A stretch of 64,000 nt of DNA from assembly GCA_014686905.1 (NCBI GenBank), contig GCA_014686905.1_4093.1. One strand, given 5' to 3'. This stretch comes from a phage. The notes beneath the pieces were generated by a model. That model was not told where the DNA came from. It worked only from the letters and a program-made list of their open reading frames with translations, and made no database searches. Positions 21,077 through 40,090 of the stretch are shown here, piece by piece; within the stretch, counting starts at the first letter, position 1, and each line of letters starts with the position of its first letter. The position numbers and the translations under genes were made by a program.

Positions 21077-21268
21077 ATGTTGATTTATCAAGGTGATAAT
21101 ATTCGTGTTATGCAGCATCCCTACTTACAAATCTTTGATGTGCAGCAGTATATGGAAGGTGATGACCCAAGAACCTATGGTCGTAAGTATGATTACTTCA
21201 CTGTAAAGCAGTGTAACAATATTAACGAAGTACGACAATTAGTTCAAGAACTTCAAAACAAAGGTTGA
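21077..21268 (+). CDS. hypothetical protein (63 aa)
   Basis: Start MLIYQGDN with SD AAGGA; track ORF starts 21023. Confidence 0.45.
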   Translation: MLIYQGDNIRVMQHPYLQIFDVQQYMEGDDPRTYGRKYDYFTVKQCNNINEVRQLVQELQNKG

Positions 21269-21294
21269 CTTCGGTCAGCCTTTTTTGTTATAAT
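21263..21294 (+). terminator. terminator-promoter cassette (UUCG hairpin whose 5' arm is the -35 box)
   Basis: GGTTGACTTCGGTCAGCC + T6, then TATAAT 18 nt after TTGACT. Confidence 0.65.
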
Positions 21295-26295: not shown

Positions 26296-26305
26296 TAAAA
26301 CTAAA

Positions 26306-26337
26306 GGTTGACTTCGGTCAGCCTTTTTTTGTAAATA
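26306..26337 (+). terminator. terminator-promoter cassette
   Basis: GGTTGACTTCGGTCAGCC + T7; -10-like TAAATA. Confidence 0.6.
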
Positions 26338-26954: not shown

Positions 26955-27374
26955 ATGAAAAAGATTTTTTTAAGTATTATTTTAGTACTTCTTAGTTTTA
27001 ATGTATATGCAGCAGATGCTAAACAGGTTGCTAATACAGTAAAAGATGTTATAGTAGACAATGCTCCTACCTTAGAGGAAATTGGGGTAAAAACTTGTGA
27101 TATTGTAATATATAATTTAGTTAATGATGAACGAGTTATGTTGAATACGTATGAACAAGTAGTCCCATTGGTTGAATCTGGTGATGCTTTTAGCTTTACA
27201 TATAAAGTTAAATTAACAGGAGGGGTTGAAGTTAATCTTGACATTGATACCGCTTCAGTACTAAAAGATAAACTAGGATATGTGTTCAATCGTATTCGTG
27301 AAGAAGGTCATCTTAAGTATGTTTATGAAAGTAAAATACTAAAACGTGCAATAGTTATAGAAAACTGTAAATGA
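26955..27374 (+). CDS. secreted hypothetical protein (139 aa)
   Basis: Signal peptide ...NVYA/AD. Confidence 0.6.
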   Translation: MKKIFLSIILVLLSFNVYAADAKQVANTVKDVIVDNAPTLEEIGVKTCDIVIYNLVNDERVMLNTYEQVVPLVESGDAFSFTYKVKLTGGVEVNLDIDTASVLKDKLGYVFNRIREEGHLKYVYESKILKRAIVIENCK

Positions 27375-27383
27375 TAATAAAAG

Positions 27384-27415
27384 GGTTGACTTCGGTCAGC
27401 CTTTTTTGTTATGAT
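27384..27415 (+). terminator. terminator-promoter cassette
   Basis: GGTTGACTTCGGTCAGCC + T6, -10 TATGAT. Confidence 0.6.
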
Positions 27416-27443
27416 GTTGATATTAACTACAGAGGATAAAGTA

Positions 27444-28085
27444 ATGACTAAGCAAGAAATATTCAAAACTTTAATTGACATTTTGCGTCCATCAAAAACT
27501 CGTTGTGCGATGGAGTTTGATATTCCTTATGCTGAACGCGTAATCTTTCCACAAGTTAAAGCTGCTGGACTTACTTTGCTTGGAATGGGGATGTACTCTG
27601 TAGTAGTTGAACATAAAAACTATCCTGGACGTGCATTTAAAGTAACCACTTCCCGCTGGGATGGTTTTCGTGCTTATGCAAAGTACTGCATTGAAAACGC
27701 AGGAACCAAGTTTCTTCCAGTGATCTACAGTGCCAACGAACAAGGAAACTTTGGATGGTATGAGATGGACAAGTACTATCCTATAATTAAACAAAAAAAT
27801 AATTATGATGACTTTGTTAGTACTAAAATTGGAGATTTGTATTCGTATGCACATGCTGGTCAGTACGCAACTTCAGTGAATGATATGCGTGGAAATTCTG
27901 AAGAGATTGCTATTGCAACGGTCGCTGCTAACATCATGAAAGAGTTTCACGGGCGTTTTGTACCAGACATTCATTCAAGTAATGTGATGATGGATAAAGA
28001 TGGGAATGTATTCATTACTGATCCTCTTTCGTGTGATGTGCGTAGAGAAATACCAATTACTGAAGAAGATCCAGTTTTTTATTGA
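27444..28085 (+). CDS. protein-kinase-like protein (~213 aa)
   Basis: AFKV (beta3 Lys), DIHSSN (DxxxxN catalytic loop), ITDP (DFG-like); start MTKQEIF with SD GAGGA. Confidence 0.5.
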   Translation: MTKQEIFKTLIDILRPSKTRCAMEFDIPYAERVIFPQVKAAGLTLLGMGMYSVVVEHKNYPGRAFKVTTSRWDGFRAYAKYCIENAGTKFLPVIYSANEQGNFGWYEMDKYYPIIKQKNNYDDFVSTKIGDLYSYAHAGQYATSVNDMRGNSEEIAIATVAANIMKEFHGRFVPDIHSSNVMMDKDGNVFITDPLSCDVRREIPITEEDPVFY

Positions 28086-28146
28086 CAGAACTGATGTTCT
28101 GATGTATTCTTAATAAACCATAAAAATTGCGGTAAAGGATAAAATC

Positions 28147-28428
28147 ATGCGTTCATTTGAAAACTTAATAGGTAAGCATCTTTTATCTGAAATTGATGCA
28201 GACGTTAAAGAATTATCCAAATCAAAAAGTTACATTCATTTGGATGAACTGTTTGTTAAGTACGGTGAGATTGGTTTTAAGTCATTATTTGTTTTTACTA
28301 TGAAAGTACATAGTTTAAAGTACTTCGATTTGAGTGCTAAAGATGGTGAACCGAATCTATATTACATGTATTACCTTAAGAACAAAGATGAAGCTAATAC
28401 ATTACTCTCTGAATATATATTGGGGTAA
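28147..28428 (+). CDS. hypothetical protein (93 aa)
   Basis: ORF, SD AAAGGA. Confidence 0.55.
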   Translation: MRSFENLIGKHLLSEIDADVKELSKSKSYIHLDELFVKYGEIGFKSLFVFTMKVHSLKYFDLSAKDGEPNLYYMYYLKNKDEANTLLSEYILG

Positions 28429-28430
28429 AA

Positions 28431-28769
28431 ATGGAACAATATTTTGAATTAATAAACAAAGTATCATTTTATGTAGTATCTTTGGTTTGGGTGTATTATA
28501 TGTTTTGCTACATTATTGCATTCTTCCGATACACTACTTTATATGAACGTATCTACTATGATGCCCCAATTTCATTCTTGATGTTTTGTGCATGTACGTG
28601 GGGAATATTAGAAGTACTGATATGTGGGTATAGTACTGATGAATTAAATCTGGTATCGGTCTTGACTGGGTTTTCATTTGTTGTTATGATAGCTGCCGTT
28701 CCAGTATGGTTGTTCTTTGGACTAGTTCATCGCATTGATATATGGCGTTCTAATATCCCTGAAAAGTAA
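28431..28769 (+). CDS. small membrane protein, YFK-family member
   Basis: TM segments; C-terminal ...RSNIPEK. Confidence 0.55.
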   Translation: MEQYFELINKVSFYVVSLVWVYYMFCYIIAFFRYTTLYERIYYDAPISFLMFCACTWGILEVLICGYSTDELNLVSVLTGFSFVVMIAAVPVWLFFGLVHRIDIWRSNIPEK

Positions 28770-28772
28770 GGA

Positions 28773-29120
28773 TTGGTAATGATTTATTACACTAACATGT
28801 TTGCCTATGCTGTTGCTTGCATTTACATTGTTTACTTCTTATTCGGTGGAGTACTGTGCTTCTTTAAGTACAAAACGTTGTTCAACCGAATGTACCCAAA
28901 TCATCCAATTGTAGTTGTACTTTTGATTCTTTCAGTTTCTCAAATAATCGTTGAAACTACAATGGGTATCAGTAGTGTACATTATAGTTTTGGCACTATA
29001 GTAATTATTACTATGCTTATTGCATACATTTTAGTACTTGGATATGGTATCTTTGGTAATATTAGTATGAAAATGTATCATCGAATTAAAACATTACGTG
29101 ATAATCTACCGGAGCGTTGA
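28773..29120 (+). CDS. small membrane protein, family member
   Basis: TM segments; FFKYK; C-terminal ...RDNLPER. Confidence 0.55.
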   Translation: MVMIYYTNMFAYAVACIYIVYFLFGGVLCFFKYKTLFNRMYPNHPIVVVLLILSVSQIIVETTMGISSVHYSFGTIVIITMLIAYILVLGYGIFGNISMKMYHRIKTLRDNLPER

Positions 29121-29121
29121 T

Positions 29122-29466
29122 ATGTATAATTTGAACCTAATCTCATATATTATAACAACACTGTTTACATTCTATGCCTTTGTTGGTATAATCCTACTGT
29201 ACTTTAAATTTTATAAAGTGTTTAACCGTTTCTATCCTTCAATGGAGAATGAGTTTTTCTTTGTGTTGTACGTAGGTTACACATTAATGGCTACATGTTT
29301 CACTGTAGCCGATGGTGTCATCGGCATTAAAACTGATTCCCCAAATGGTAGTACGCTGGTTGCATTTATTCTTACTGGATTCCTTGCAACTTATATTGCC
29401 TTCATTACAACATGGTCAGTGGTTGAATTTCTCTTGCGACTACGAAAGAATATGCCGAATCGATAG
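29122..29466 (+). CDS. small membrane protein, family member
   Basis: Start MYNLNLIS with SD GGAG; YFKFYK; C-terminal ...RKNMPNR. Confidence 0.55.
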   Translation: MYNLNLISYIITTLFTFYAFVGIILLYFKFYKVFNRFYPSMENEFFFVLYVGYTLMATCFTVADGVIGIKTDSPNGSTLVAFILTGFLATYIAFITTWSVVEFLLRLRKNMPNR

Positions 29467-29475
29467 GAGACAAAT

Positions 29476-29730
29476 ATGTTTGCGTTGCGTAATAAAAACA
29501 CTAAAGAATTATTATGTATTGATACCGTATGGGATTGTGCGGGGTCAACTACAGTTCTTGAAGAAGGAACTGGATATTGCGTGTTTGTTGTACATGATAG
29601 GAATGAACTCGAATTATTACTTGCTGAGTTCAATGCTGGTGGTAATCCTAACAGTACTGAATACCCTGAGATTATCAATCCAGCACCACCAGGCTCTTAT
29701 GAAATTCTACAACTGTGGGAGTTGAAGTAA
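29476..29730 (+). CDS. hypothetical protein (84 aa)
   Basis: ORF, SD AGGAGA. Confidence 0.55.
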   Translation: MFALRNKNTKELLCIDTVWDCAGSTTVLEEGTGYCVFVVHDRNELELLLAEFNAGGNPNSTEYPEIINPAPPGSYEILQLWELK

Positions 29731-30110
29731 TGCGACAAATGTACAAAGTAACCGAGCTAAACAAGCGTCTGGTTAAACAATCTATGTTTGAGGATAAAGA
29801 GTCTTACTATAACTTTAAACGTGCAGTAGAGGCTTCTATCCACATTCAGAAGCTTAAAGAACGTGGTTGTATTATTCTGGAAAATGGTTCGGAAGTTGTA
29901 ACGGATGACTTTAGTGTAGCGTTTGATGTTTCACCTGACGGGACGCTATCAATGCCCCGCTTAGGAACTGGAAACATGACTGTTTGGGTTGGCTTCACTA
30001 TGGGGAATGTACCTGGTACTGTGTACGTAGATGATGCAGAATTGAAAGACAGTTTCAAAAACTTATCTTATCTTGAACCACAATACGCACATGAAATGAA
30101 TTTATTTTGA
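29730..30110 (+). CDS. hypothetical protein (~126 aa)
   Basis: Start MRQMYKV with SD GGGAG. Confidence 0.55.
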   Translation: MRQMYKVTELNKRLVKQSMFEDKESYYNFKRAVEASIHIQKLKERGCIILENGSEVVTDDFSVAFDVSPDGTLSMPRLGTGNMTVWVGFTMGNVPGTVYVDDAELKDSFKNLSYLEPQYAHEMNLF

Positions 30111-30112
30111 GT

Positions 30113-30139
30113 TGACAAACACATTCAGTACTGTATAAT
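30113..30139 (+). promoter_or_regulatory. sigma70-like promoter TTGACA-N15-TATAAT with CAGTACTG spacer
   Basis: TTGACA 30113-30118, TGTATAAT 30132-30139. Confidence 0.5.
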
Positions 30140-30186
30140 GCTTATCAAGGGGATGAACTTCTCATCCCTACAATCGAGGAACTACC

Positions 30187-30741
30187 ATGATTACTTTTAA
30201 GAAAACTGCTAACCACATCCATGAAATCTACATTAACGGTCACAAAGCTGGCCTTCTTCGTTTACTCGCCCATCACCCTGATGCTACCGTATCTGATAAT
30301 GAACCTAAAGATTGGCGTGTCTTTTTCTTTGGAAAGTACAGTGATTTTCAAGTATCAAACCTGAAGAACATTCGTTCAGTATGCACGTTAAATGAAATTA
30401 AAGAAAAGTTAGCACAAGCATTGAAAACTAATCCAGATGGTGTTCTTCCACCTGATAACTTTGTAGAGAAAGGTTATGCCTTAGCTCATTTCAAAGATGG
30501 TACTATTCAATCTATCAGTACTGAATATGAATATCATTGGACTGAGTACTTCACTTATGGTTCGAGTAATACATTGATGGATTCACGTAGTAAATTGGAA
30601 GAAGTACTGACTCGTATGAATGAACGCGAGCGTCAGTTATATGACAAACCAGAAATGTGGAGTTCAACTTACATTGACCGTATTGACTATGTTATTATGA
30701 CTCCAATCTTTGACACTGCTTACTATGATTCTTTGAAATAA
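30187..30741 (+). CDS. hypothetical protein (184 aa)
   Basis: ORF, SD GAGGAA. Confidence 0.6.
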   Translation: MITFKKTANHIHEIYINGHKAGLLRLLAHHPDATVSDNEPKDWRVFFFGKYSDFQVSNLKNIRSVCTLNEIKEKLAQALKTNPDGVLPPDNFVEKGYALAHFKDGTIQSISTEYEYHWTEYFTYGSSNTLMDSRSKLEEVLTRMNERERQLYDKPEMWSSTYIDRIDYVIMTPIFDTAYYDSLK

Positions 30742-30752
30742 GGATAACTTAT

Positions 30753-30929
30753 ATGAAACTACGTACTCGTAATCGACTGATGGATGCACTGTACCATGAA
30801 CAGCTTTCACTGAATGAAGTGAAGCGTCAGTTAATGTACACATATCAGTTTCCCGCTCGCATTGCAAAACAACGTGCTAAAGAATTGCTGAAAGAAGCAG
30901 TCGAGTACTGGGAATCTGATTCGTACTAA
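30753..30929 (+). CDS. hypothetical small protein (58 aa)
   Basis: MKLRTRNRLMDALYHEQ..., SD AAGGA; below track threshold. Confidence 0.4.
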   Translation: MKLRTRNRLMDALYHEQLSLNEVKRQLMYTYQFPARIAKQRAKELLKEAVEYWESDSY

Positions 30930-30968
30930 TATTACGTGATATGTCACGTTAATTAAGTGAGGCGATAA

Positions 30969-31220
30969 ATGAAAATATTATTAGTTCTAATACTACTAAT
31001 AGTTTTACCATTTACTTTAGTATCCCCTGGACTTGCATGGAATGTATTTGTGTACTTAGTATGTACTATTGTAGTAAATGGTATCTTGTTCTTAGTTCTA
31101 TTCATAAATGGAATAGGACACGGTGGAGGATGGACCAGTACTGCTGATATTGTACATAAAACCACTATGTCTTTATTTGTAATGTGGAATTTATTCTGGA
31201 CTTGGTTTGTGTTCTTCTAA
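30969..31220 (+). CDS. hypothetical membrane protein (83 aa)
   Basis: Hydrophobic throughout, SD GAGG. Confidence 0.5.
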   Translation: MKILLVLILLIVLPFTLVSPGLAWNVFVYLVCTIVVNGILFLVLFINGIGHGGGWTSTADIVHKTTMSLFVMWNLFWTWFVFF

Positions 31221-31228
31221 TTAAAAAT

Positions 31229-31600
31229 ATGAATATAGATTTGAAAGGTGCAACACGAACTGTTATCCTCATTGGGGAATATGCTATCAAGATTCCAACC
31301 TTTAAAAGTTGGAAGCTATTCTTAACAGGGATGATAGCTAACCTCAATGAACGTTCGTGGATGCAGTACTCCAATCGTAGTGATAGTAGTATCTGTCCTA
31401 CGTTGTGGTCATCATGTACTGGACTAGTAACTGTACAGAAACGTTGTAAGCCAGTTCAACATAGGGGTTTATTTTGGGTGGAGTTGTGTGCTTTAGCATT
31501 GAATTCAGAGTTAAGTACTGACTTCTTCTATTCAGATGCGAAGCCAGAAAACTTTGGGTATCTGGGTGGTAAGTTAGTTAAACTTGATTATGGAGATTAA
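31229..31600 (+). CDS. mini protein-kinase-like protein (~124 aa)
   Basis: EYAIKIP (beta3 Lys), DAKPENFGY (HRDxKPxN-like catalytic loop), KLDYGD (DFG-like). Confidence 0.5.
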   Translation: MNIDLKGATRTVILIGEYAIKIPTFKSWKLFLTGMIANLNERSWMQYSNRSDSSICPTLWSSCTGLVTVQKRCKPVQHRGLFWVELCALALNSELSTDFFYSDAKPENFGYLGGKLVKLDYGD

Positions 31601-31601
31601 T

Positions 31602-31871
31602 ATGTACGCACTGTATAATAAAGAAAAGAAACGATTTGCTAAGGTTGAAATTTCGATTGATACATTTGATATGTTGGAGTACTGTATTGTAACTGACCTA
31701 TATGCTAACTTGTATTACGTTCTTGATGACGTATCAGTACTGCAACGATTGCTTGAGAATTCCAAAAGTCAATGCCAGGGCATCCATGATGGTTCATCTT
31801 ATGAAACACCTGAGTGTTCCTACGGCTATCTGGACGGGTATGAGATTGTGAAGTTGGGGAACATTGAATAA
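31602..31871 (+). CDS. hypothetical protein (~89 aa)
   Basis: Start MYALYNKEK within track ORF 31584..31871. Confidence 0.5.
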   Translation: MYALYNKEKKRFAKVEISIDTFDMLEYCIVTDLYANLYYVLDDVSVLQRLLENSKSQCQGIHDGSSYETPECSYGYLDGYEIVKLGNIE

Positions 31872-31877
31872 AGAAAA

Positions 31878-31910
31878 GGGTTGACTTCGGTCAGCCCTTT
31901 TTGCTATAAT
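31878..31910 (+). terminator. terminator-promoter cassette (consensus copy)
   Basis: GGGTTGACTTCGGTCAGCCC + T5, TATAAT 18 nt after TTGACT, then ATTATTTCATCAA box. Confidence 0.7.
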
Positions 31911-31938
31911 TATTTCATCAAGACGAGAGGATGAATAC

Positions 31939-32454
31939 ATGACACGCATTAACTTAGTACACGTTAAAGAACTTGCTGACCAACATCTGATGGCTGAATA
32001 TCGTGAACTCCCACGTGTATTTGGTGCTGTACAAAAACACGTTCAAGCACGTAAGCGTGTACGTGATTTCAAAATTAACAGTACTTATCTGTTAGGTTCA
32101 GGTCATGTGACATTCTTTTACGACAAGTTGCTGTACTTACAGAAGCGTCATATCGATATTGTTAACGAATGTTTGCGTCGTGGTATGAAGATTCAAAACA
32201 CTGAAGTAAACGACATTAGCGGCTTCCCTGCTGAGTTTTGTAATGACTACGTACCAACGGAGTCAGAGATTAAAATGTCTCGTGATCGTTTGATTGAGAA
32301 GCTCCAGATGAAGCCTACGTGGTATAAGTTTACTGATGTTGAATGTCCACAGTACGTTAAAGATATGCAGAACGTAAGTAGTAAGAACGAATCTAGTACT
32401 GATATGTTCGACGAAATTGAAGAACAAATCAAAGATGAAATGAATAATTATTAA
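31939..32454 (+). CDS. denV: pyrimidine-dimer DNA glycosylase / endonuclease V (T4 DenV-like)
   Basis: N-terminus [35 protein letters not shown]...KRVRDFKI and ...[10 protein letters not shown]...PTWYK match my recollection of T4 endonuclease V, including catalytic Thr2. Confidence 0.85.
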
Positions 32455-32492
32455 AGGAAAGGGTTGACTTCGGTTACACAAAGGAACATAAC

Positions 32493-32687
32493 ATGTTATT
32501 AGTATATTCAAAGCGTTTCTGGATTTCTTTTATTGTACTATCGCTAATCGGCTTCGGTTTGAGTATACTCTTTTCGTGGGATGAATTGGGTACATGGTAT
32601 TATGAAGTCCCGTGGTACATGAAGATAGCTCCTTGTTATGCGGCATTGTTCGTGTCATTCCTTATTGTTGTCTTCAGCGAGGATTAG
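32493..32687 (+). CDS. hypothetical small membrane protein (64 aa)
   Basis: Two TM-like segments; preceded by degenerate cassette copy 32459-32478. Confidence 0.45.
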   Translation: MLLVYSKRFWISFIVLSLIGFGLSILFSWDELGTWYYEVPWYMKIAPCYAALFVSFLIVVFSED

Positions 32688-33153: not shown

Positions 33154-33159
33154 CATAAA

Positions 33160-33192
33160 GGGTTGACTTCGGTCAGCCCTTTTTGCTATAAT
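33160..33192 (+). terminator. terminator-promoter cassette
   Basis: GGGTTGACTTCGGTCAGCCC + T5 + TATAAT + ATTATTTCATCAA. Confidence 0.7.
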
Positions 33193-33218: not shown

Positions 33219-33455
33219 ATGAAACTATCTTTTATACGATTAGCTGAATTCTTCGGTACTGATGTAATTACTTTACAACAAATTGCAGATAATACTTCAT
33301 TAAGTACACAAGAAGTACTTGACTTAGATGTAATTCAGTGCGATAATACTTCCATCGATTTCAAAGAAGGTCTTGTCGAAAAAGATAAGATTAAAGCTAA
33401 GATTAATGGTGCTGGGCGGGTTCAGTACTGGAAAGGAGTATTAAGTAATGTTTGA
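33219..33455 (+). CDS. hypothetical protein (78 aa)
   Basis: ORF, SD AGAGGT. Confidence 0.5.
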   Translation: MKLSFIRLAEFFGTDVITLQQIADNTSLSTQEVLDLDVIQCDNTSIDFKEGLVEKDKIKAKINGAGRVQYWKGVLSNV

Positions 33456-34566
33456 ACAGTATTATTTAAATGAAGATGGTGAAAAAGTTTATTTTCATGA
33501 AGAACTTGGTATGCGTTTTGAATGGATGAAGCCTGAAGATATAAAAAGGGTTTCAAAAGGACTCACTGCTAAGGATCATGTTGATGACATAGAAGCAAAA
33601 TTAAAAAACAAAGATATTGACAATATTACTATTATTGGATTATCAGTTAAATCATCACGTGAGTTTGGTAAAAACGGAAATAGTAATAACAATTTACTGA
33701 TTATGTATAATGGGGTATTGTATGATAATTATAAAATAACTGGTTTAAAAACAAAGCTTGAAAAAATAACAAACAATAAATTCAAGCCATCATTTACCTA
33801 TACAGATGAAAATTATTATTACTATGTAACCAAATTGGGTTCTCTTGAGGAAAGAGGATGCTATATATATGAAAATGAACATTTAGACAATGGGATAATG
33901 TCATATATTAAATTCACATATTCCGATGGATTTACACAACCACGAAGAATAAATGATATAATTACAAAAACATCAATGAACGTTAGATATTTTATAACAC
34001 CTGAAATGCGTGAAACAATTGCTAACACACGCTGTAATGAACTAGGATATACATTAAAAGAAGTTTACAAGAAATCAAATGGTCGTTATTATGTAAAATA
34101 TATATGTGATAAAGGACACGAGTGTAATCAAGACTATTATGCGTTTACTAGTAAACAAGCACAAAAGTGTGGATGCTGTTCCCAATTAGAAACACACTCA
34201 TTTGGTCATAATGATTGTAAAGAGTTTTTGAGAGGAATGTTTGTTACTGAAAGAGAGAAAACATTTCCTGATTTAAAAAATAAATCAAAACTTCCATATG
34301 ATTTTTATATTCGTGATATTAATACGTTATTTGAATATGATGGTAGTAATCACTTTGAAGAACGTGAATCAGGATGGGGAAACGGACTTATGAGGAAAAA
34401 ACACGATAAAATCAAAACAGAATACGCAATAAAAAATGGATATAACTTCATTCGTATTGCGTATTATGAAGACCATATTGGAGCATTGAAATCTTTCCTT
34501 AAACTCATTGAAGAGAATCCAGGAAAGCAAATCGTGCAGATCTATGGTGAAGTACAAATTATCTAA
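33448..34566 (+). CDS. putative endonuclease-like protein with Cys cluster (372 aa)
   Basis: CDKGHECNQ...CGCCS Zn-finger-like cluster, then PYDFYIRDINTLFEYDGSNHFEE resembling a restriction-endonuclease-like core. Confidence 0.45.
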   Translation: MFEQYYLNEDGEKVYFHEELGMRFEWMKPEDIKRVSKGLTAKDHVDDIEAKLKNKDIDNITIIGLSVKSSREFGKNGNSNNNLLIMYNGVLYDNYKITGLKTKLEKITNNKFKPSFTYTDENYYYYVTKLGSLEERGCYIYENEHLDNGIMSYIKFTYSDGFTQPRRINDIITKTSMNVRYFITPEMRETIANTRCNELGYTLKEVYKKSNGRYYVKYICDKGHECNQDYYAFTSKQAQKCGCCSQLETHSFGHNDCKEFLRGMFVTEREKTFPDLKNKSKLPYDFYIRDINTLFEYDGSNHFEERESGWGNGLMRKKHDKIKTEYAIKNGYNFIRIAYYEDHIGALKSFLKLIEENPGKQIVQIYGEVQII

Positions 34567-34574
34567 AACAAAAG

Positions 34575-34606
34575 GGTTGACTTCGGTCAGCCCTTTTTGC
34601 TATAAT
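34575..34606 (+). terminator. terminator-promoter cassette
   Basis: GGGTTGACTTCGGTCAGCCC + T5 + TATAAT + ATTATTTCATCAA. Confidence 0.7.
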
Positions 34607-37881: not shown

Positions 37882-38253
37882 ATGAGTTACCGTGAGATAT
37901 TTTCCATTATTTCAATTATTATGTTCAGTACTGGAACACTGGTATGGTTATTATACTTCTTCTGTATTAATCCAGTGTATAATATGTTATGTAATATTAA
38001 ATCAAGTGCCGGATATATCACTTTTATGGTCTTTATGGGATATTATTGTCTAAGCATTTTAGGTGTTGTTTTGGTTGTTATATTTGATGTGGGACCAAAT
38101 AGTGATGGTATGGAAATACATGAATTAATAACCATGTTTGGATGTATGATACCAACAGCACTACTGTTTGTAGCTACTGGTAGTGGATTGATAAAATTAT
38201 ATAATTATTTAAAATCCATTCATAATTCCATTCATAATAAGCGTATGTCATAA
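37882..38253 (+). CDS. small membrane protein (123 aa)
   Basis: TM helices, SD GAGGAA. Confidence 0.5.
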   Translation: MSYREIFSIISIIMFSTGTLVWLLYFFCINPVYNMLCNIKSSAGYITFMVFMGYYCLSILGVVLVVIFDVGPNSDGMEIHELITMFGCMIPTALLFVATGSGLIKLYNYLKSIHNSIHNKRMS

Positions 38254-38258
38254 TAAAA

Positions 38259-38283
38259 ATCCAGTACTATTAAGTACTGGATT
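38259..38283 (+). terminator. perfect hairpin (possible terminator or processing site)
   Basis: AATCCAGTACT-ATTA-AGTACTGGATT; no clear T-run. Confidence 0.35.
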
Positions 38284-38294
38284 AATAAGGAGTT

Positions 38295-38957
38295 ATGATG
38301 AAAACAAAATTAGGTTTGTTTTATAAAAATTATTTCGTTAAACAGCGTAAATTTATAAAAAAATATTTCTCTGGTGAGAAGTCTAGTCCTATAATTTTTA
38401 AAAGACCAAGTTATAATACTTACTTAGCTGGTGCTAAACAGTCTAAGAAATTTATTACTCTTTTAAATAAAAACAAAATTAAAGCTTCTTATGTTGAAAC
38501 GAGAAGAAACTCATCAATAACTCCTGGTGATTTTATTGAGTACGGATGTTTCAATATTAAGTACAATGATAATACATACTTTATGGATATTGATTGTAAT
38601 ACATCCAATCTTTTTAACATTGTAGTAAATCCATTAAAACAATATAATGTTTATGGTGATTCTATTATCAAATTAATCAAAAACAAAGATAGCTTTGATT
38701 TTGAAATAAATGTTTTAGATGATAATTTTGACGAAGTACCAGTAAACCCTGAAATCTGTGATATTTTAAACAGTTTAAAAGGTAGTACCTACAATATATC
38801 ATCTGATTTAATGTTTCAGTACTCATTAATCCATAAAGATATTGAAAAGTATATTGAATGCTCCAAAATTTTGAATTATCTTTACGATGAATTTAAAAAG
38901 AGTTCTAAAATAACTGCATACACTTTGTACAATATTCCTAAAATGGTGAATCTTTGA
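38295..38957 (+). CDS. hypothetical protein (220 aa)
   Basis: ORF, SD AAGGAG; 3' end converges on the RCC1 array. Confidence 0.55.
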   Translation: MMKTKLGLFYKNYFVKQRKFIKKYFSGEKSSPIIFKRPSYNTYLAGAKQSKKFITLLNKNKIKASYVETRRNSSITPGDFIEYGCFNIKYNDNTYFMDIDCNTSNLFNIVVNPLKQYNVYGDSIIKLIKNKDSFDFEINVLDDNFDEVPVNPEICDILNSLKGSTYNISSDLMFQYSLIHKDIEKYIECSKILNYLYDEFKKSSKITAYTLYNIPKMVNL

Positions 38958-40090
38958 CAAATACAGTACTGGCAACTCCACCGTCTGTAATATATTGTCC
39001 AGTACTGTAAATTTGTATACCATCGGTTAAGTAAGTTCTGTATAAAGTTGCTGTAACATATACGTTATTCATATTCATCTCTATTGGTAGTACACATTTG
39101 GTATAGGCCGACACATCTGTTTGTGTACCTATACCCAATTGACCTGCGTTATCGCCTGTGTTATAACCAGTTGCGTAAACACCTAATGAAGTTATAATAT
39201 GATTAGAAAAATATGAATAACCCACACTGCTTCTTATTATATCACCTGGTGCTTGTGTTGTTTGTCTTAACGAAATATATGTTTGTGATGTAGAACCATT
39301 TGCTAACTGACCAAAGTACTGTCCACCACCATGATATGCAAATAATTTATTAGTACTATTATTACTTGCTATAGCAAAAGCGAAGTAACTTGAGTTTGTT
39401 GTATAATCTTTCACCGTATAGGTATTAGTTATTTGAGAACATAACGTGTACTTTGAATATAACGTCATGTCGGTTGTACCTACGCCTGATATTGCACCAG
39501 TATAATACAATCTCCCATCGGTTCCAATAAATCCTTGCATAAGAAAATTTGCCAGTATTTTGGATGGTGTTACTCCAGTAGGTACTGTTCCTTGTACAAA
39601 TGATGAAAGTGAATCGGTACTTCTACCATTTCCCAGTTGTCCATAACTACCATAACCAGTATTCCATATCGTGTTGTCTGTACATAATACGCTTAATGCA
39701 CCTGCACTAACTGCAATTTGTTTTATTGTTTTTCCTAGGGCTGTTATTCTATCAAACACTATCTTTGCAGAAGCCCACGTAGTAGACTTATCAGTTGATA
39801 AACCCAATGATGCACCATTCCCAGCGTACCACATCGTATTATCTTTCTTTTTTATTAAAGTTGACTCATACCCGCACCCATATATCTTCTACGTTTGTAT
39901 TGCATAAAACCCATTGGGTCTGTGTTATAATATTACCTATACCCATTTGCCCAAACTCTTGAGAGCCTCTACTGTATAGTGTCCCGTCTGACATAAGGGC
40001 AAAAACTGTCGTATCAGATGAAGATATTTTGGTAACAGTAGGGGGTAGGTTCTTTTTTGATGATGTGATAATTCTTCCAAAGGGTAGCAT
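38938..40090 (-). pseudogene. RCC1-like repeat protein, paralog 1, interrupted by frameshift near 39870-39890
   Basis: N-part starts MLPFGRII and stops at 39866; RCC1-like body continues in another frame (track ORF 38938..39834); indel in a C-run. Confidence 0.6.

Follow-up and report, generated by a model that had tools for sequence, protein, structure and literature searches.

Can a polypeptide that ends one residue past the magnesium-binding motif of a kinase still act as a kinase? The question is raised by a locus in a 64,000-nt stretch of phage DNA (GenBank assembly GCA_014686905.1, contig GCA_014686905.1_4093.1; this whole stretch is hereafter called the window). A sequence-only reading had reported two genes there with the ordered motifs of the eukaryotic-like kinase catalytic core, here called gene A and gene B. 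Positions 27000-32500, in which every gene lies on the + strand, showed 99.1-99.6% nucleotide identity to Escherichia phages CRJP21, G17, Sharanji and 121Q, which are jumbo myoviruses of 350-370 kb in the genus Asteriusvirus. Both open reading frames (ORFs) and all six motifs named (AFKV, DIHSSN and ITDP in gene A; AIK, DAKPEN and DYG in gene B) were confirmed at the following coordinates:

27444..28085, + strand: gene A, a predicted T7K-family protein kinase domain of 213 amino acids (aa); equivalent to 121Q gp205, G17_00108 and Sharanji WNN14432.1
31229..31600, + strand: gene B, a predicted half-kinase of 123 aa; equivalent to 121Q gp215, G17_00098 and Sharanji WNN14422.1, all annotated as hypothetical

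The extent and motifs of gene B had been given correctly, but its length had been put at 124 aa; the product has 123 aa, followed by the stop codon. We give a probability of roughly 60% to the reading that the locus holds two unrelated early kinase-like genes, one encoding a T7K domain without its shut-off domain and the other a 123-aa half-kinase that would act as a phosphotransferase. Structural statements on both proteins rest on AlphaFold2 models.

Sequence conservation in the gene B family

The motifs of gene B comprise a G7-x-T9-R10 loop, K21 in AIK (β3), E41 (αC), D103-A-K105-P-E-N108 (catalytic loop) and D120-Y-G122 (the DFG equivalent), and the stop codon lies one residue past the last of these. 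Spacings were 20 residues from Lys to Glu (20-21 in the family), 5 from Asp to Asn and 17 from Asp to Asp (17-18 in the family). The corresponding spacings in PKA are 19, 5 and 18 (K72, E91, D166, N171 and D184).

When 1.84 billion cluster representatives were searched with a gene B profile, 1,206 matched at E ≤ 1e-3 and 639 at E ≤ 1e-10. Approximately 90% of the best 150 matches were 105-142 aa long, with the match running to the C-terminus, and homologues begin at the same Met as the 31229 start. An alignment of 136 family members, preselected at 105-142 aa and sharing 28-66% identity with the window protein, was used for all residue counts. K21, E41 and D120 were invariant in it, down to 28% identity, and G7, R10, V12, P23, F31, G34, N38, G65, G110 and Y121 were at least 90% conserved. 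Position 103 was acidic in 135 of the 136 sequences (D in 91, E in 44, K in 1), position 105 was K in 118, and position 108 was N in 95 and S in 40. The catalytic loop thus has the pattern [D/E]-x-K-x-x-[N/S], with Glu and Ser variants common and no His-Arg before D103. In the DFG equivalent, which lies 17-18 residues past the catalytic acid, Y121 was present in 123 sequences and G122 in 120. No columns of the family alignment are more conserved than those of the motif residues, so the motifs of gene B go far beyond chance.

Two residue sets alternated in the alignment: D103/N108/K118 covaried with E103/S108/A118, with 90 D-N and 38 E-S sequences vs. 8 other combinations, a pattern that would be compatible with coupling within the active site. 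In members that have lost K105, a Lys was often found at position 107 (for example, DGFPKN). The end point was also shared: among these length-selected members, 91 of 136 ended exactly 3 residues after D120 and 116 within 4. A few homologues were longer (Kc263, 267 aa; P0151, 257 aa; P0181, 205 aa). Their extensions showed no Pfam match and no kinase C-lobe motifs, and the short form is therefore the norm of the family rather than a fragment. One further candidate, P0063 (1,073 aa), was rejected as a gene B fusion, the match being a spurious one to tandem repeats.

Gene B belongs to phrog_4301, for which function is not assigned, and is labeled "hypothetical" in each Asteriusvirus record examined. 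It had no match in Pfam, NCBIfam or PADLOC, and its database homologues carried no precomputed Pfam domain. One of the longer homologues matched ABC1 at E = 4e-4, below the cut-off. In three GenBank records, homologues bear the label Ser/Thr kinase or "STE family kinase catalytic domain," so the resemblance had already been noticed by annotators. The label "virion structural protein" in Shewanella phage SXP01 was found to belong to the adjacent coding sequence and not to the gene B homologue. Literature searches returned no paper on the family. A single narrow-pattern scan of bacterial genomes found no homologue, which, given the low sensitivity of the scan, does not show that bacteria lack the family.

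Predicted structure of gene B and comparison with known kinases

The sequence-only reading had proposed a kinase-like core for both proteins and named structure prediction as a check. AlphaFold2 returned a confident kinase-like fold for each, and the models, structural matches and profile alignments placed every motif named on the expected catalytic element. For gene B, the prediction based on the 136-sequence alignment reached a predicted local distance difference test score (pLDDT) of 96.5 and a predicted template modeling score (pTM) of 0.86, with all five models at a pLDDT of at least 95.7. From the N-terminus, the model consists of β1-β3 (K21 in strand 18-23), a helix at 28-43 equivalent to αC and bearing N38 and E41, β4, β5, an αE-like helix at 79-92, a short helix at 97-101, the loop 103-108, a β7-β8 hairpin (strands 109-112 and 115-118) and D120. 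In the model, the invariant Lys and Glu are located in the β3 strand and αC helix that hold this pair in kinases. The modeled N-lobe is five-stranded, and only the catalytic-loop and Mg-loop elements of the C-lobe are present. No helix was predicted in the place of αD (72-78, after β5 and ahead of the αE-like helix). The chain stops at D120+3, with no activation segment, APE motif or helices αF-αI, and no element of the model follows strand 115-118.

All 50 Foldseek matches listed for the gene B model in the PDB were kinases (MPS1/TTK and WbdD), with probability 1.0 and TM-scores of 0.5-0.65 on the query; the core is structurally similar to solved members of the protein-kinase-like (PKL) superfamily. 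When the 136-sequence profile was compared with PDB sequences, 22 of the 23 weak matches were to TTK (E = 0.27-0.8). The alignment paired vDaKPeNFG...vKiDYG of gene B with sDLKPaNFL...LKLIDFG of TTK, so that D103, K105 and N108 fell on HSDLKPAN and D120 on DFG. Single-sequence and 14-sequence gene B profiles had no match in the PDB, and the gene B profile had none to T7 gp0.7. The motif register, fold matches, TTK alignment and spacings together bear out the assignment of catalytic residues that had been made from the letters alone.

The protein had also been thought unusually small for a kinase core, and this held: 123 aa is less than the length of every PDB kinase chain matched, the shortest being OspG (169 residues) and Ark1 (173 residues). 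To our knowledge, every matched chain, including those of Shigella OspG/NleH, RIO1/RIO2, Bud32 and ArkI, keeps helices after the DFG motif. Compared with these small kinases, whose matched chains have 169 residues or more, gene B has 123 aa; no sequence similarity to any of them was detected. Gene B does not belong to the OspG/NleH group, as it is without the post-DFG helices with which these proteins bind E2~ubiquitin.

The nearest structures are those of eukaryotic-like Ser/Thr kinases (MPS1/TTK and PknB), with which gene B shares the predicted N-lobe topology, the Lys-Glu pair, in the window protein D-x-K-P-x-N, D-[YF]-G and the spacings. It differs from them in having a G-x-[TS]-R loop instead of GxGxxG, in the lack of His-Arg and of αF-αI, in its end 3 residues past D120, and in scoring below every Pfam kinase threshold. 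Aminoglycoside phosphotransferases (APH(2'') and APH(3')) carry an HGD-x-x-x-x-N catalytic loop, which contains no Lys, and a large helical C-lobe for substrate binding, whereas the catalytic loop of gene B is of the protein-kinase type (D-x-K-x-x-N). With no match to the model and without the αF-αI part of the C-lobe, gene B is outside Pfam Pkinase (PF00069); its predicted fold and core motifs place it inside the PKL superfamily, and it is best described as a radically truncated new form within the kinase superfamily.

Gene A is a known T7K homologue

The motifs of gene A are a G47xG49 loop, AFKV at K66, DIHSSN at D175-N180 and ITDP at D193 and P194. In 20 sequences with 40-64% identity, K66, D175, H177, N180 and T192-D193-P194 were invariant and L195 was nearly so; as in gene B, the motif residues are the most conserved family columns, which argues against chance. 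The best PHROG matches were phrog_15752 (E = 1.2e-98), which carries the T7 gp0.7 description, and phrog_2828 (E = 9.3e-17), in which the match ends at position 222 of the 366-position profile. When T7 gp0.7 was aligned with a profile of 20 gene A homologues by hhalign, residues 34-205 of gene A matched residues 61-225 of T7K (probability 98.5%, E = 3.1e-15), and FDMHSGNIM...YITDPVS of T7K was paired with PDIHSSNVM...FITDPLS of gene A. PF27024, a recent Pfam entry, is precomputed on gene A homologues. The AlphaFold2 model had a kinase fold (pLDDT 93.9, pTM 0.89) and 133 Foldseek matches in the PDB at E ≤ 1e-3, of which the 50 listed were only protein kinases or APH, with probability 1.0.

Gene A shares with T7 gp0.7 (T7K; PHROG 2828/15752, PHA00451, PF27024) the G-loop, the β3 Lys, DxHxxN, D-P in place of DFG and, as predicted for gene A, an early promoter. 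Its Ser at DP+2 corresponds to T7K Ser216; the residue is Gly or Ala in most relatives of gene A. Unlike T7 gp0.7, gene A reads DPL rather than DPV and has no C-terminal shut-off/DNA-binding domain, the protein ending 20 residues past the DP motif. A recent study, in which T7K homologues were defined by phrog_2828, reported that G17 carries a diverged jumbophage T7K homologue with a DP(V)-type motif and the shut-off domain lost, and that Val is replaced by Leu in the D-P-V motif among jumbophage variants (PMC13645617, Nature 2026). In T7, the kinase activity disarms defence systems. Gene A falls in the same clade as this G17 homologue. Loss of the shut-off domain is the architecture reported for the jumbophage clade, so gene A is a domain-loss variant and is not excluded from the T7K family.

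All sequence and fold tests applied, the predicted model included, thus place gene A in the T7K family, minus the shut-off domain. It is also already known: the 121Q and G17 records annotate it as a protein kinase, and WNN14432.1, which has the same sequence, is described in the Sharanji paper as a T7K homologue. By homology, gene A would be a Ser/Thr(/Tyr) kinase of the T7K type, constitutively DFG-in-like (D-P motif), with host proteins as its substrates early in infection. A counter-defence role is possible by analogy with T7K; targeting probably differs from that of T7K, the DNA-binding shut-off domain being gone. The longer form starting at the 27411 ATG, as in the 121Q record, is unlikely because homologues begin MTKQEIF, because 27444 is preceded at 7 nt by an AGAGGA ribosome-binding site, and because the predicted -10 box covers the 27411 ATG.

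No relationship between gene A and gene B was detected by BLASTP or by hhalign of the two family profiles, and the idea that they are paralogues was rejected. A hidden Markov model search of six-frame ORFs found no further copy of either family in the window. A third protein kinase, WNN14351.1, is named in the Sharanji paper; it is approximately 70 genes from gene B and probably beyond the window.

Genomic context and predicted expression

The features that border the two genes are the following:

27381..27415, + strand: terminator hairpin of the preceding gene unit (annotated as a terminator in G17) with the predicted gene A promoter; TTGACT -35 box in the 5' arm, 18 nt, TG-extended TATGAT -10 box
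30112..30139, + strand: perfect match to the σ70 promoter consensus (TTGACA-16 nt-TATAAT, 12/12), heading the five-gene unit 30187..31871
31602..31871, + strand: gene for 121Q gp216 (89 aa, phrog_8563), starting 1 nt after the gene B stop; not a conserved partner
31876..31902, + strand: intrinsic terminator hairpin at the end of the gene B unit, annotated in G17; contains the TTGACT -35 box for denV, with a TATAAT -10 box ending at 31910

Of the five tightly packed genes in 30187..31871, gene B comes fourth, and the strong hairpin at 31876-31902 closes the unit. A short stem, GGGATGA...TCATCCC, follows the 30112-30139 promoter in the 5' untranslated region of gene 30187..30741. On the basis of the σ70-like promoter matches upstream, both gene A and gene B are predicted to be early genes transcribed by host RNA polymerase; the promoter calls are consensus matches only.

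A near-identical 27-nt terminator hairpin, AAGGGTTGACTTCGGTCAGCCCTTTTT, occurred six times on the + strand of the window vs. 0 expected (21260-21286, 26303-26329, 27381-27407, 31876-31902, 33158-33184 and 34572-34598). In the copies at 27381 and 31876, TTGACT in the 5' arm doubles as the -35 box of a σ70-like promoter for the next gene, forming a fused terminator-promoter cassette. The same hairpin accounts for the peptide 'KKADRSQP' that recurs in spurious minus-strand ORFs.

Homologues of gene B were found in Tequatrovirus and Dhakavirus (T4-like, Straboviridae), Schitoviridae (N4-like), Vequintavirinae, Felixounavirus, Abidjanvirus siphoviruses and Mesyanzhinovviridae, as well as in jumbo phages of Erwinia, Aeromonas, Klebsiella, Ralstonia and Pseudomonas. 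They were usually located among small early genes or beside replication and repair genes. An all-against-all BLAST comparison of ORFs within 3 kb at 31 loci found no conserved neighbor; only denV recurred, in two lineages. In the window, the homologue of DenV (T4 endonuclease V; 31939-32454) is separated from gene B by one gene and a terminator, and in high-GC Abidjanvirus-like contigs of an unrelated lineage (L022, L025, L026, L027 and L029) it directly follows or overlaps the gene B homologue. In the T4-like phage JS10 (L035, 2477-3854), the gene B homologue ends 1 nt before rnlB (RNA ligase 2), and in phage NC-G the gene B match overlaps an RNA ligase annotation. DNA ligase or polymerase genes were found near homologues in PaMx11, SPJ41 and A5-4, and primase and helicase genes in a metagenomic contig. 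The RNA ligase adjacency could hint at RNA-end chemistry for the family; we take the denV and rnlB adjacencies as leads, not as proof of function.

The possibility that gene B is one half of a split kinase completed by the product of 31602..31871 was rejected: the latter is a separate full-length family (phrog_8563) and is absent beside homologues elsewhere. Positions 168-225 of the phrog_4301 profile were unmatched in any gene B homologue found, and the product of 31602..31871 does not match them either. This product (gp216) and that of 29476-29730 (121Q gp210, 84 aa) both start M-[FY]-A-L-x-N-K and share 27% identity (pairwise E = 0.009), and they are possible distant paralogues.

Between gene A and the gene B unit, three tandem paralogues (28431-29466; 121Q gp207-209) encode probable membrane proteins of 112-115 aa, with 25-29% identity to the first copy and a common C-terminal R-x-N-x-P-E/N-K/R motif. 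Related phage records differ on a 372-aa ORF farther downstream (33448-34566): some label it 'endonuclease' or 'restriction enzyme', others 'hypothetical'. Its product has a Cys-rich segment, CDKGHECN...CGCC. Across the window, GC skew was positive to approximately 38 kb, negative at 40-58 kb and then positive, and its sign changes (38000-40000 and approximately 58000) suggest coding-strand switches between gene blocks.

Discussion

As judged from conserved residues and the predicted fold, the most likely identity of gene B is a minimal phosphotransferase that binds Mg-ATP and is produced early in infection. In the mechanism that we propose, K21, E41 and D120 would bind Mg-ATP as in any kinase, and the acidic residue 103, with K105 and N108, would catalyze γ-phosphate transfer. 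Without an activation segment or the αF-αI lobe that binds the substrate, the active site would be open, unregulated and constitutively configured. Shortly after infection, the protein would begin to act on host targets, or it might do no more than hydrolyze ATP. Catalysis is favored by the family alignment, in which the position of the catalytic base stays acidic, the Asp/Asn to Glu/Ser switch is coupled, and the Lys is relocated rather than lost.

Several observations weigh against this reading. Canonical kinases need αF to anchor the catalytic and regulatory spines; lacking this helix, gene B may be unstable by itself or may need a partner for activity. Approximately 13% of the family have no catalytic-loop Lys, and approximately 30% have Ser in place of the Asn. 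No Pfam kinase model was reached by the family (PIP49_C matched weakly in 3 of 136 sequences, with a best E of 1e-3), and no single PDB sequence match was significant, the best having E = 0.27. As for early expression, the promoter scan found 22 matches vs. 28 expected from shuffled sequences. That the family consists of self-sufficient, catalytically active kinases of approximately 120 residues is put forward tentatively, at somewhat less than even odds.

One rival is an incomplete kinase that works only in a complex, with the C-lobe surface supplied by a partner from the host or the phage or by another copy of gene B itself; a variant of it is an ATP-bound pseudokinase or ATPase switch that binds and blocks a host protein but transfers no phosphate. 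We consider explanations of this kind rather unlikely. Activation by a partner has precedents in OspG (by E2~ubiquitin) and Bud32 (by Kae1), and the parts missing from gene B are αF-αI and the activation segment. Moreover, the strictly invariant residues are those that bind the nucleotide, whereas the catalytic-loop Lys and Asn vary. However, no phage-encoded partner is conserved beside gene B, the monomer is modeled with very high confidence, and a pure binder would have no need of the acidic base position that 135 of 136 members keep. Less probable again is an active kinase with a non-protein substrate, either a nucleic-acid end or ribose hydroxyl, as for the archaeal tRNA kinase ArkI, or a small molecule (a nucleotide, a signaling molecule or an antibiotic-like compound, for instance), as for APH. 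The peptide-binding lobe is absent from the model, the family is basic (median isoelectric point 9.0, net charge +3.6), and genes for nucleic-acid enzymes (denV, rnlB, DNA ligase or polymerase, primase and helicase) are often near its members. These associations are loose and come from few lineages, though, and such genes typically cluster in early and replication regions; in addition, D-x-K-P-x-N is the Ser/Thr protein-kinase form, and the closest sequence and Foldseek matches of gene B are to the protein kinase TTK.

The abrupt end after the DFG-type motif and the existence of a few longer homologues might instead suggest a decayed fragment of a full-length kinase, or a chance motif in a nonfunctional ORF. 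This we regard as highly improbable and, given the family length, the shared end point and the invariant residues, as effectively refuted. Hundreds of divergent clusters have the same length and end point, the key residues do not vary down to 28% identity, the tails of Kc263, P0151 and P0181 are unrelated and without Pfam match or C-lobe motifs, and the ORF downstream of gene B is a family of its own.

The interest of the locus comes from gene B alone. Gene A adds nothing new by itself, but it marks out a jumbo phage that can be cultured (Sharanji, with E. coli K-12 MG1655 as host) for testing the T7K clade that lacks the shut-off domain. If gene B is a self-sufficient phosphotransferase, then its family would be the smallest protein-kinase-like enzyme known, and an N-lobe, αE, a catalytic loop and a Mg loop would suffice for phosphotransfer without αF or a substrate lobe. 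A family of 1,206 cluster representatives, ending at the DFG motif, would then mark the smallest unit of the kinase fold that is functional and would challenge the view of αF-anchored spines as indispensable. For phage biology, gene B would be an early, open and probably promiscuous takeover or counter-defence kinase in unrelated virulent phages, parallel to T7K and of independent origin. Genes of this family are currently "hypothetical" in almost every genome checked; with gene B, T4-like, N4-like, rV5-like, FelixO1-like and jumbo phages would gain a widespread early function that is not annotated at present, and possibly a second phosphorylation-based route to host takeover or anti-defence.

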